A DNA stretch of 61,572 nt, the filler included, from Bacteriovoracaceae bacterium (GTDB lineage Bacteria > Bdellovibrionota > Bacteriovoracia > Bacteriovoracales > Bacteriovoracaceae): NCBI GenBank assembly GCA_018649885.1. It is 5 parts of 5 records of this genome, joined end to end, with 100 filler letters (N's around TTAATTAATTAA, not from the genome) between each part and the next. Parts side by side here need not be neighbours in the genome. Positions count along the whole stretch, not along the records: positions 23,822 to 28,861 come from JABIHA010000146.1; 4 more parts are not named here. The stretch is one strand, 5' to 3'. Under the pieces are notes generated by a model that was not told the DNA's origin, searched no databases, and was given only the letters and a program-made list of their open reading frames with translations. Each line of letters begins with the position of its first letter. Position 1 is the stretch's first letter. Of this stretch, positions 25,694 to 30,001 are shown piece after piece. The translations under genes were made by a program, and so were the position numbers.

Positions 25694-25880
25694 ATGATCT
25701 ATAAAGACCCTTTATCATACTCACTATGCATGAAATAATTACTATCCTATGTCATAGTTACATGCGCTTCGCATTAACAATGAGTTAATTTCAGTTAAAT
25801 TGTGCCTTCAAGTATTAAAAAATCATTAATCAAATGATATTAATGAATATGTGAATACATGTGATATGAAAATTCGTTAG

Positions 25881-26771
25881 TTGACATCCTTAATTGAGGC
25901 GATGCTCTTGAGTGAAATAGATTTTAAAAAAAATATTATAAATACAATCAAATACGCAAGGATTTCTAATAGTCTCACTCAAACTGATCTAAGCAATGTA
26001 ATCGGATGTTCAAGATTTAAAATAGCTAGAATAGAAAGCGGAAAATCTTCTATATCAGTAGAACAACTCGATACGTTTATGAACTTTTTTCATTTGAGCT
26101 ATGATAATTTAAAATTAGGAATCGTAGATTCTAAGGTATCGAACGATTTTGAAAACTTTGAAATTAATAAATTACATCAAAGAGATGCCTATACAAAAGG
26201 GCGCTCTCTATATCTATACCGTCAACATTTTATTAGCTTATTTGGAGAAGATGAGTTTCACCAAGTGTGCAAGGATGAAAAAGTAGATCCACTCTACTTT
26301 GTTAATATCAACAACCCTCTAAATATTAATTTTAATTTAAGAATTATTCAGAAAATGAGAATAGAAGGGCACCTTAACCGAGAGGAGCAATACAGCCTTC
26401 TTTCCAAATTATCCATGAAACTTCCTGCTCACCACTTTAAATTTTTCGAAGAATACAGACAGTTGGATGGCATTGAGAAAGTTACCAAACTTATAGAAAA
26501 TATGCCTTTTTATGAAGATGACCATAAATTTGAAATACTTAAAAATGATTCTAAAAATGAGTCTATCAGCTACTCCTTCCATCCAAGAGAGCATGTGGAT
26601 AAAAGTCTATATTTTGAAGACCCATTTATAAGGGGGTACTACTGCCAGTTTAACCCAAATTATTTCTCAAATTTTTCTGGAATAAACACAACGGTACAAA
26701 AACATAGTTGCATTTTTAATGGTAATGAGTGTTGCTCATTTACCATTAAAAAGGAGCGGTATGGAGCATAG
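25881..26771 (+). CDS. XRE-family HTH regulator with a C-terminal V4R/H-NOX-like putative ligand-binding domain
   Basis: ARISNSLTQTDLSNVIGCSRFKIARIESG HTH; C-terminal HSCIFNGNECCSF resembles the V4R C-x3-G-x2/3-C end; start may be 25902 or 25908. Confidence 0.7.
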   Translation: MTSLIEAMLLSEIDFKKNIINTIKYARISNSLTQTDLSNVIGCSRFKIARIESGKSSISVEQLDTFMNFFHLSYDNLKLGIVDSKVSNDFENFEINKLHQRDAYTKGRSLYLYRQHFISLFGEDEFHQVCKDEKVDPLYFVNINNPLNINFNLRIIQKMRIEGHLNREEQYSLLSKLSMKLPAHHFKFFEEYRQLDGIEKVTKLIENMPFYEDDHKFEILKNDSKNESISYSFHPREHVDKSLYFEDPFIRGYYCQFNPNYFSNFSGINTTVQKHSCIFNGNECCSFTIKKERYGA

Positions 26772-27663
26772 CTTAGTTTTCCAGGAAAAATTTGAGCAAC
26801 TGCTAAGCTTCCTTGATGTGAAAGGAAATGAGCTGTGTGATTTTTTAAAAGAGCCTACAAATTTAATAGAACATTATGAAAATAGACTTCATCAGCTTCC
26901 TGCAGAGAAAGCATTTTCACTTAGTGAAAAGCTTAATTTAGATTATGAAAGCTTTGTAAAAGGAAAATATGATCCACTTGCAGCATCAGAGCATTTGAAA
27001 GGAAATCATTTATATTTACCTAGCCGCTACAATCAGTACCGCTCTAGCAAGATGATGACGATGTCAAACATCTTAGATACAAGCACATTTTTTTTCGACC
27101 AAAACGTCACAAGTGAAATATCTAGGAAGCTTCAACTATCAAATGAATTAATTGAATCTCCAAATCATCAGGTTTCAGGACTTCTTTTGCTTGATTTATT
27201 TAAGGAATTAAAAAGGCGAGGAATATCGGATAATTATTTTTATCTAATTGGCCATAGAGCTGCTTTAAAATACAAATCCTCTGTAAACAAAGAATACCAA
27301 ATTAAAGGTTTGTCACCAAAATATACATATGAAAAAATTATTTTAAACTTGGTGAATTTTCTTGAAAAAAACCTTCAATATACCATTGTGAAAAGCACAA
27401 ATAAAAAGACTATTTTAAAAGCTTCAACGAGAGAAGAAACAAAAGATAAATTGAAGGTAATCCACTTTGGTATACCGGCCCATTGTCAAAATATTATGGG
27501 ATGGTATGGAGCCTTCCTAAACTATAGTCACGATACATTTGCCAAAGTGACTAAGCTATCTTGCGTCCATTCTGGTGCAAAAGATTGTCTATATGAAATA
27601 GATTATTCTCATGCCCCGCAATCACTATTCTCTCATCCCAATCACTGCGAAACTCTTCAATAA
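26761..27663 (+). CDS. Paralogous degenerate XRE-HTH plus V4R-like domain protein
   Basis: AAGGAG RBS at 26761 overlapping the upstream stop; LIEHYEN...LSEKLNL HTH-like; LSCVHSGAKDCLYEI C-terminus. Confidence 0.65.
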   Translation: MEHSLVFQEKFEQLLSFLDVKGNELCDFLKEPTNLIEHYENRLHQLPAEKAFSLSEKLNLDYESFVKGKYDPLAASEHLKGNHLYLPSRYNQYRSSKMMTMSNILDTSTFFFDQNVTSEISRKLQLSNELIESPNHQVSGLLLLDLFKELKRRGISDNYFYLIGHRAALKYKSSVNKEYQIKGLSPKYTYEKIILNLVNFLEKNLQYTIVKSTNKKTILKASTREETKDKLKVIHFGIPAHCQNIMGWYGAFLNYSHDTFAKVTKLSCVHSGAKDCLYEIDYSHAPQSLFSHPNHCETLQ

Positions 27664-28312
27664 GCTGATGTGCCTCTTCACTTAAGTTATTTAAAACGAG
27701 TATTAAAAACTCATCTCCAATATATTGTGGAAAAGGTATCTGGGGAAGAATTTCACTTTTTAACTTCAAGGCCTCATAACCAATCTTTTTTAAAACTTTA
27801 TCTGATTGGACTCTCATTCTTGCAATACACATGGAACTTTTTATGCCAAAGTCGGTATGGAATCTCGATAGCATGCACTCAAACATTTTAAGACATTGTA
27901 TTCTTTTTGCATTATCTCCAACATTGGGGTCGATGGCAAGTGAAGCAGTATAACCAACCCCACCATTATAACTTCGATTGTACTCAAAAAAATTATTAAC
28001 AGCTTTTATATGCCTTTTATTCTTAGTTCTCTTTACTACTTCACTCCCATTAAAAGGTATTTTCCAATGGTTGCACCTTTCTTCTGTAAGTCCTTTAAAG
28101 CTAATTAATGGATTTAACTCTCCATCGACTACTTCTCCAACAATAAAATGAGTTGCAAATAAATCACTTGTATCGACAGGGATATACTTAGATTCTATTG
28201 TTTCATAACCCTTTAGTTTTAAATTCATAAGTTTGCTATATAACGACCTTACTTCAGGCAAATGCAAATTTGCGGCAGGACAATCGAGAACTATCATTTT
28301 TAAATTAGACAT
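27551..28312 (-). CDS. Putative GNAT-fold acyl synthase (LuxI/FeeM-like)
   Basis: LKLKGY...PVDTSDLFATHFIV...YTASLAIDP...LKKIGY follows the spacing of LuxI/FeeM motifs (R..VF, E.D.yD, SRF.V); start at MSNLK after GGAG. Confidence 0.5.
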   Translation of the reverse strand: MSNLKMIVLDCPAANLHLPEVRSLYSKLMNLKLKGYETIESKYIPVDTSDLFATHFIVGEVVDGELNPLISFKGLTEERCNHWKIPFNGSEVVKRTKNKRHIKAVNNFFEYNRSYNGGVGYTASLAIDPNVGDNAKRIQCLKMFECMLSRFHTDFGIKSSMCIARMRVQSDKVLKKIGYEALKLKSEILPQIPFPQYIGDEFLILVLNNLSEEAHQLIEEFRSDWDERIVIAGHENNLFHIDNLLHQNGRKIA

Positions 28313-28328
28313 AACTACTCCATCAGTA

Positions 28329-28721
28329 TTATTTTTTAAAACCCCAAGATATAAATTTGTTGAAGAAAAGTGTGTTAGACAAATCACGACTACTTTCTAA
28401 ATAACGTTTTTCAAAATCATAGTAGGCTTCTTCGCTTCCTAAGATAGAAATAAAGTTATCTTTTGCGATTGATAGCCTCGTTTTATTATTAGCATATTCT
28501 TCTTCCATTTCCTCTTTCGTTTGAAACTTATGAACACTTAGATCCCAGGAGACGTCATCAAACCCTGCCTCACTAATAAATGAAGATAGTTTTCTTCCCA
28601 CATAGAGGTCTAGTGGCAATAGGCTTCTAATTTTTTCTATATAGGAATTCAATTGTTGATCTTTGGACCAAATATTTAAAAATATTCCATCTAAATCGAT
28701 TAGGTAAACAATTCCACCTGG
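28329..28721 (-). pseudogene. C-terminal half of a class I SAM-dependent methyltransferase, interrupted by an IS21-like end
   Basis: PGGIVYLIDLDG and YVGRKLSSFISEAGF motifs; coding frame ends at the TG terminus at 28723. Confidence 0.7.
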
Positions 28722-28722
28722 G

Positions 28723-28861
28723 TGGTTTTTGCAGTTGAAAAGTCATCCACTGTAACGGCCGAATTATCACCCACCCCGTGGTTAAATTAAATTCCTCTTT
28801 TCAATCATTTAGATTCTCTTCTTCTTAATTTTAAAGGAGCAGGGGGCAATGCCCCTAGAAC
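28723..28861 (-). mobile_element. Right end of the same IS21-family-like element type, running into the contig gap
   Basis: TGGTTTTTGCAGTTGAAAAGTCATCCAC plus TGTAACGGCCGAATTATCACCCACC, homologous to the end at 1-139; GGGGCAATGCCCC hairpin inside. Confidence 0.7.

Positions 28862-28961: not shown

Positions 28962-30001
<1,040 letters not shown>

Follow-up and report, generated by a model that had tools for sequence, protein, structure and literature searches.

Gene content and distribution of the cassette

The subject of this work is a cassette of two regulator genes, R1 and R2, and a candidate synthase gene, S, in the genome of a Bacteriovoracaceae bacterium (phylum Bdellovibrionota; assembly GCA_018649885.1). 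The stretch of DNA analysed, here called the window, is 61,572 nucleotides (nt) long and joins five parts of the genome with runs of 100 N; positions below are those of the window. The cassette genes are on a 5,040-bp contig (G000:C14; JABIHA010000146.1, 23,822–28,861) placed between N gaps. R1 is on the plus strand and ends at 26771. As judged from the sequence, its start is more likely the ATG at 25902, which has a GAGG ribosome-binding site, than the alternative TTG at 25881. R1 encodes an XRE helix-turn-helix (HTH) followed by an H-NOX/V4R-like C-terminal domain. R2 (plus strand, 26761–27663) encodes a degenerate XRE-fold domain and an H-NOX/V4R-fold domain with cysteines C242, C268 and C276. 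S is on the minus strand (27551–28312) and encodes a 253-residue predicted N-acyltransferase of an unnamed family, modelled with a LuxI/FeeM-type GNAT fold.

An original prediction, made from the DNA sequence alone, had pictured this locus as an AT-rich block in which two translationally coupled, paralogous regulator genes face a minus-strand methyltransferase gene and S. Much of that picture stands. The block has a GC content of 32.6%, against a genome mean of 38.3%, and falls in the lowest 0.2% of 10,109 equal-length genome windows. The R2 ATG overlaps the R1 stop by 11 nt, the two regulators are paralogues (HHalign 99.9%), and both end in C-x3-G-x3-C (C270..C278 in R1 and C268..C276 in R2). 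The open reading frames confirm that R2 and S are convergent and overlap at their 3′ ends by exactly 113 nt, 27551–27663. An XRE HTH had been claimed for both regulators. It is detected by Pfam in R1 (HTH_3, E 5e-6, above cut-off), whereas in R2 the fold is seen only in the model, residues 1–69 of which match XRE proteins with Z up to 7.6. Both minus-strand genes are present, but the methyltransferase is broken. What is left is a 3′ remnant of 130 residues (28329–28721), of the class I S-adenosylmethionine (SAM) methyltransferase type, which scores 147 bits against a profile of the methyltransferases that neighbour S elsewhere, over profile positions 131–259 of 260, and is without the SAM-binding motif I.

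The methyltransferase gene is interrupted by the end of a multicopy insertion element that begins with TG and occupies 28723–28861. The repeat starting at 28723 is found at nine contig ends of this genome, and the depth of the insertion-element contig is about tenfold higher in four marine runs. An identical methyltransferase/insertion junction is present in metagenome contig L193, possibly not an independent sample. A search of the assembly found neither the methyltransferase 5′ half nor the opposite end of the element. Elsewhere in the genome, a copy of this insertion-element end lies on either side of a two-gene unit (G000:C78:225-2215), which we take to resemble an AbiE-type toxin–antitoxin pair. 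Within S, window position 27911 is C rather than A in all four other read runs, changing codon 134 from Asn to Lys. After the gap, the next contig opens with what appears by eye to be a 16S rRNA-like fragment (28962–29600; GC 54%).

Across 401 genomes of the phylum, S homologues were found in 99 and matches to an R2 profile in 120. A total of 100 S matches was used in two rounds, a few fragments and secondary matches being left out. The first set has 82 loci (80 plus the two copies of this genome; 52 genus codes and 9 family codes), and the second, which was held out, has 20, of which many are on short contigs. In 89 of the 102 loci S has an R2-type regulator as a neighbour, and the proposed co-occurrence of these genes in other genomes extends across the phylum. 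The distance from S to R2 is at most 4.5 kb in 72 of the 82 loci, and R2 is present in 17 of the 20 held-out ones. S and R2 are convergent in 55 of the 82 and overlap in 47 of these 55, and R1 directly precedes R2 in 37. The correlation of S and R2 distances (r 0.79, 71 pairs) was not counted as evidence, as linkage and kinship explain it. Members of the S family are recorded in Bacteriovorax stolpii, B. antarcticus, Halobacteriovorax sp. GB3, Pseudobdellovibrio exovorus and several Bdellovibrio, all annotated as ‘hypothetical protein’. A role in anti-phage defence was rejected: PADLOC matches were limited to generic HTH, E1 and methyltransferase models, with none for S or R2.

Among 20 R2-profile matches located away from S, seven are R2 genes, with or without R1, that stand on long contigs without S; four are cut by contig ends and nine are R1-like singles. 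The seven S-less receptor loci are L173, L175–L179 and L182. In L173, R2 is followed by a histidine kinase gene, and L175 and L176 keep R1, R2 and an α/β-hydrolase of the family ABH5.

The enzyme gene accompanying S varies. A methyltransferase is present in 32 of the first 82 loci, a ThiF adenylylase in 34 and both in one; the corresponding counts are 12, 5 and 0 in the held-out loci, and 44, 39 and 1 for all 102. That is, methyltransferase and ThiF are near-exclusive alternatives. On the S tree, this state changes eight times, with swaps inside well-supported groups (L044/L050; L069 versus L070/L075/L078). The type of α/β-hydrolase tracks the partner: ABH5 is found in 14 of 16 loci with the methyltransferase alone, ABH6 in 19 of 25 with ThiF alone, and neither hydrolase in the 17 loci that have neither enzyme. 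The cassette ThiFs, mostly 270–350 residues long, are closest to PRK08223, below its cut-off. In six loci (L040, L042, L047, L048, L117 and L122), a gene for a pyridoxal phosphate-dependent enzyme lies near ThiF, being cysteine-synthase-like in the four short ones; such an enzyme could supply an unusual amino acid substrate. Our HK (histidine kinase) and RR (response regulator) labels for other neighbours lump together kinases, ATPase-only proteins and receivers.

The S protein and the regulator pair

Searches of Pfam, NCBIfam and PDB sequences with S gave no match. Word-based homologue searches returned only three relatives of S and none of R2, and a scan of the genome contigs gave only two short unrelated matches. 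Longer, fused forms of S were searched for and none was found, which is weak evidence. The S family has 419 representatives at 50% identity. The nearest Atlas clusters are unnamed and mostly from Bdellovibrionota, and GNAT/FeeM clusters follow at 0.90–0.91.

The S model, built on 145 sequences, has a pLDDT of 92. Foldseek ranks LasI and EsaI first. A wide structural aligner gives Z scores of 15.3 for RpaI (root-mean-square deviation [rmsd] 3.1, 192 residues aligned), 15.3 for LasI (rmsd 3.1, 182 aligned), 14.8 for FeeM (rmsd 3.0, 175 aligned) and 14.5 for TofI, followed by 14.4 for a generic acyl-CoA N-acyltransferase (1xeb) and 14.2 for MesI. The top four matches align over 168–192 residues, and other GNATs among the top 11 over at most 156. 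The GNAT/LuxI-type fold proposed for S is therefore found by the model together with the structure searches. In its modelled fold, S resembles the LuxI/FeeM branch of GNATs, and it is a member of neither family. PF00765 (Autoind_synth) matches none of the 145 S family members at E ≤ 0.1 and nothing in this genome; PF21926 (FeeM) matches one of the 145, at E 0.09, and none above cut-off.

Conserved polar residues of S include K32 (93%), D47 (88%), D50 (100%), H55 (95%) and K/R73 (97%). The LuxI invariants used for comparison are R25, F29, W35, E44, D46, D49, R70, E101 and R104 (TraI numbering, seven sequences). S residues K32, Y36, D47, D50 and K73 are in or next to register with R25, F29, D46, D49 and R70; W35, E101 and R104 have no counterpart. 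As compared by profile, S is closer to FeeM than to LuxI: HHalign gives 83% (E 8.5e-6) against an alignment of 24 FeeM-domain sequences, over 94 C-terminal columns only, and 2% against a shallow alignment of seven LuxI sequences.

Two related groups of loci were seen. In L114–L128, S is of a sister subfamily; these loci mostly also carry ThiF, ABH6 and R2, and often a stand-alone XRE protein of about 94 residues replacing full-length R1. L143–L166 hold true FeeM-domain proteins, which are found in many genomes of the phylum as open frames of about 400–480 residues, up to six per genome; they occur separately from S in 61 of 251 phylum genomes.

The regulators neighbouring S form two clades (FastTree support 0.64 and 0.86) with complementary conservation. 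HTH_3 is matched by 41 of 41 members of the R1 clade and V4R by 1 of 41, whereas in the R2 clade HTH_3 is matched by 4 of 57 and V4R (PF02830) by 18 of 57 (best E 2.8e-8). Among the domain matches of the regulators, which include XRE and V4R, no LuxR or autoinducer-binding domain is listed. The R2 model has a pLDDT of 91, and the 300-residue protein consists of the XRE fold and the sensor domain only. R2 residues 96–290 match H-NOX (Z 13.5, rmsd 3.2, 179 aligned), TRAPP Bet3 (11.2), PoxR and DmpR (both 10.2) and VirS (9.6). The V4R-like fold expected of the regulators is thus seen in the C-terminal domain of R2. In Thermodesulfobacteriota and Nitrospirota, an Atlas structure search also found this sensor fold (window 27000–27630) in fusions with GAF domains, histidine kinases and guanylate cyclases, and in Myxococcota it found the fold standing alone.

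The hallmark of heme-binding H-NOX proteins is a proximal His together with a YxSxR motif. Heme sensing by R2 was rejected: His is present in at most 8 of 57 rows in any of columns 192–207, and YxSxR has no counterpart, in an alignment that is weak here (53%). All three of C242, C268 and C276 are kept in 27 of the 57 R2s. Their spacing, 26 and 8, is that of the zinc ligands C155/C181/C189 of MopR, as given in the available text of PMC9556785.

A heterodimer of the two regulators, also suggested originally, gains support from the complementary clades and from a complex model. The R1:R2 model scores 0.68, against 0.00 for the best control; runs share at least 68% of contacts, and the partners have a pLDDT of at least 78. 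The mark used for this score is reached by 116 of 157 solved pairs and by 2 of 215 mismatched pairs. The modelled interface consists mainly of the XRE dimer helices. We predict that R1 is the DNA-binding subunit and R2 the ligand-sensing subunit.

A palindromic candidate operator

In relatives, a palindrome, TATTC-N6-GAATA, occurs upstream of synthase, tailoring and regulator genes. In an unbiased count of spaced palindromes, with divergent regions counted for both genes, ATTC-N6-GAAT came out top upstream of R1 (10 of 38 regions; 0.3 expected), S (13 of 68), methyltransferase (5 of 25) and ThiF (7 of 30), and was not top upstream of R2. When each locus was left out in turn, the box was matched upstream of 15 of 68 S genes, 6 of 26 methyltransferases, 7 of 30 ThiFs and 10 of 38 R1s, compared with 1 of 334 unrelated genes. 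In the held-out loci, 14 of 56 cassette or shared regions have it, versus 1 of 40 unrelated ones. The box is also found before hydrolases and neighbouring histidine kinases. It tracks the S promoter and the ThiF/R1 promoter separately through rearrangements, and its centre is in most cases no more than about 50 bp from where S starts. A scan for sigma-70 promoters gave 17 sites, 9.4 ± 5.2 being expected.

Presence of the box goes with R1, as 19 of 49 loci with R1 have it and 1 of 33 without R1. It goes likewise with the recognition helix: 18 of 32 loci with the consensus R1 helix have the box, and 0 of 9 with a divergent helix. The 20 box-positive loci are spread over 14 genus codes and 4 family codes, related genomes not being independent. 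The recognition helix of the window R1 diverges from the clade consensus and no box lies here, so the argument rests on the relatives. The genome of the window has 46 box-like sites in all. By eye, no shared motif is evident for the divergent-helix R1 clade. Upstream of R1 in the window lies a perfect 8-bp inverted repeat with an 8-nt spacer (25823–25846), a possible variant operator that is not significant, 10% of 500 shuffles matching it.

Some exact boxes lie away from the cassette. Among 16 hand-picked distant sites are three before genes for receiver-domain proteins and one before a small XRE gene. They are L244:1996, L257:2009, L258:2035 and L233:1508, located 10–87 bp upstream of genes for a receiver-cNMP protein, two OmpR-type regulators and the small XRE, respectively, and they are a lead to an output regulon only.

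Proposed circuit and competing explanations

We propose that this conserved Bdellovibrionota cassette likely produces a fatty-acyl signal that it also senses, as follows. S would couple an amino acid to an acyl group. The free carboxylate would be masked by the partner enzyme, as a methyl ester by the methyltransferase or, in other genomes, as an oxazolone by ThiF. Either route would yield an uncharged, diffusible and hydrolysable molecule, which the paired α/β-hydrolases may remove. R2 would bind the product within the predicted R1:R2 heterodimer, and R1 would carry the complex to the box. Since the box centre is mostly so near the S start, the ligand may relieve repression, switching on S, the tailoring gene, R1 and the adjacent kinases in a positive feedback loop. 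The parts of this proposal differ in strength. That S makes a small molecule sensed by R2 to control the cassette is the best founded, and we consider it probable. An autoinducer-like circuit that uses an N-acyl amino acid with its carboxyl masked, either as a methyl ester or as an oxazolone, we judge to be evenly poised. The ester/oxazolone chemistry taken alone is tentative, falling somewhat short of even, and the cell-to-cell role, production and action of the signal between cells, is put forward with the same reserve.

The single carboxyl-masking role assigned to methyltransferase and ThiF is our own inference. ThiF proteins paired with N-acyltransferases are described as activating the carboxyl group and cyclising N-acyl amino acids to oxazolones, as in OxzAB and TrzAS, in the available texts of PMC12596934 and PMC12856293, and oxazolones are suggested as possible signals in that of bioRxiv 10.1101/2020.06.11.147165. 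[quoted passage not shown]

Several findings weigh against the proposal. A generic acyl-CoA N-acyltransferase, 1xeb, is within 1 Z of the top matches of S, and the profile similarity of S to LuxI and FeeM is weak, being confined to the 94 C-terminal columns of FeeM. Tyr121 of S, 95% conserved, occupies the Glu position of LuxI and FeeM-domain proteins, i.e., the conserved Glu of the FeeM E-x-S-x-L-A motif; the sister subfamily has Asp there. SbzI, a carrier-protein-dependent GNAT, works without a general base (PMC11685415). As for the tailoring step, 17 of the 82 loci have neither enzyme, and the methyltransferase's matches to BioC, UbiG and N-/O-methyltransferases, all of them far below cut-off, do not indicate its acceptor. 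The neighbour clustering, which included no dedicated profile search, showed no oxidase family recurring next to the ThiFs, unlike the OxzAB/TyzACB/TrzAS pathways with their fused or adjacent flavin-dependent oxidase; the ThiFs are too short for a fusion. The R1:R2 model may reflect memory of solved XRE dimers, and in 18 of the 82 loci R2 stands without a detected R1 or small HTH, which makes the heterodimer less than universal. The box is missing in this window and in 62 of the 82 loci, and in 10 genomes it shows no genome-wide enrichment (134 exact sites versus 168 for the control).

The cassette could instead be a biosynthetic cluster under intracellular product feedback, in which S and methyltransferase or ThiF make an acyl-amide (a surfactant, antimicrobial or stress lipid) with no cell-to-cell role. 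Linkage and box data fit this equally well; the box is local, 19 of the 134 exact sites being within cassette loci, which were in the training set; and the products of known N-acyl amino acid pathways are antimicrobial or of unresolved role in the available texts of PMC12856293 and PMC12479983. Receptor loci without S, boxes before adjacent histidine kinases, distant receiver-domain genes and a small XRE gene, and the lack of any recurring transporter family in the neighbour clustering all argue the other way, and we regard product feedback as unlikely. Somewhat less likely still is inducible detoxification or scavenging, with R1:R2 sensing a foreign hydrophobic compound, such as a prey signal or an antibiotic, and inducing enzymes for its acylation, methylation, adenylation or hydrolysis. 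The V4R domains of MopR, DmpR and PoxR sense external phenols, and Bdellovibrio predation is inhibited by prey quinolone signals, according to the accessible portions of PMC9556785 and PMC8461301, respectively; common resistance enzymes include GNATs, methyltransferases and hydrolases, and genes of all three kinds have the box upstream. S, however, groups with the biosynthetic LuxI/FeeM branch and not with resistance GNATs, the papers cited above link this type of ThiF to N-acyl amino acid synthases, and the fixed S–R2 pairing with an exchangeable methyltransferase or ThiF suits a single pathway better.

It seems improbable that S is no small-molecule synthase but a co-regulator that binds a ligand, or an acyltransferase whose protein targets are R1/R2, with methyltransferase and ThiF as regulated cargo. 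The loss of the family glutamate and the tighter linkage of S to R2 (89 of 102 loci) than to either enzyme would fit; the conserved K32/D47/D50/H55/K-R73 cluster and the best structural matches, which are small-molecule synthases, do not. The least probable alternative, and very improbable in our view, makes S a divergent SAM-using acyl-homoserine lactone (AHL) synthase and R2 a new AHL receptor. In both fold searches, AHL synthases are level with FeeM or ahead of it, and the convergent overlap, seen in L137, resembles that of esaI/esaR. On the other side, the unmatched W35, E101 and R104 and the profile similarity favouring FeeM speak against an AHL synthase, and, as homoserine lactone has no free carboxylate for ThiF, the alternation of ThiF and methyltransferase would go unexplained.

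The proposed signalling circuit has the logic of an autoinducer circuit, a known kind. LuxR solos are known as receptor-only loci. Like LuxI/LuxR pairs of the esaI/esaR type, the cassette has the synthase fold, a convergent 3′ overlap, a palindromic box before the synthase and receptor-only loci. It differs in its XRE + H-NOX/V4R-fold receptor of two paralogous subunits, in the inclusion of a tailoring enzyme and a hydrolase, and in that S fails to match PF00765 and several invariant residues. FeeM N-acyl amino acid synthases (PF21926) offer the closest profile and a similar fold, but S has no Pfam match and carries Tyr for Glu. PEP-CTERM N-acyl amino acid synthases are said to be linked to PRK08223-type ThiFs. 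With the OxzAB/TyzACB/TrzAS systems (Rv1356c-Rv1355c), the cassette shares an N-acyltransferase adjoining ThiF, in 39 of the 102 loci (not the window copy), and signalling genes nearby. Its ThiF is stand-alone, shows no recurring oxidase beside it in the neighbour clustering and is exchangeable for a methyltransferase, and it comes with a dedicated regulator pair and a candidate operator. R2 shares its fold and cysteine spacing with MopR, DmpR and PoxR but is fused to XRE and not to a sigma-54 ATPase; from H-NOX it differs in lacking the conserved heme ligand and YxSxR.

The role of oxazolones is called unresolved, and no receptor is named, in the available text of PMC12856293. The compounds of PMC11580390 belong to the class that a cassette with a methyltransferase is predicted to make; their action is not through AHL signalling, and their synthase genes are unknown there. 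A phylogenomic survey (bioRxiv 10.1101/2020.11.01.364414), in the portion available, reports no AHL synthases in Bdellovibrionota and suggests other quorum regulators; our PF00765 search of the 401 genomes agrees (best E 1.5e-7). No description of this system was found in a literature search of titles and abstract starts, most subscription journals and supplements being outside it. These ThiFs could be among the entries of the sequence-network supplements to the oxazolone papers. As far as searched, there is no description of the receptor architecture, of a tailoring step that is exchangeable or of the candidate operator.

The genome of the window carries a second cassette (G000:C21:110651-114137), in which R2′ and R1′ are intact. 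It is distant from the window copy (21–24% identity), its predicted methyltransferase being a different, unrelated one, and S′ has an in-frame TGA at codon 147 in the assembly sequence. Because both synthesis arms look damaged while the four regulator genes are intact, the organism may sense the signal yet not complete it. A close orthologue of the cassette ABH5 hydrolase (271 bits) lies at G000:C72:192520-193431, beside a small receiver-type gene; it is near the end of C72 and is not joined in the assembly to the methyltransferase 5′ half or the insertion element.

The cassette is real, conserved and testable. It offers candidates for the synthase, tailoring enzymes, receptor and operator of quorum-type regulation in the phylum, and, as family members occur in cultured, harmless predators, each step is directly testable. 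If the proposal is true, the cassette would extend the known receptor architectures beyond LuxR, and it could bear on how predators coordinate, including in their use as living antibiotics.

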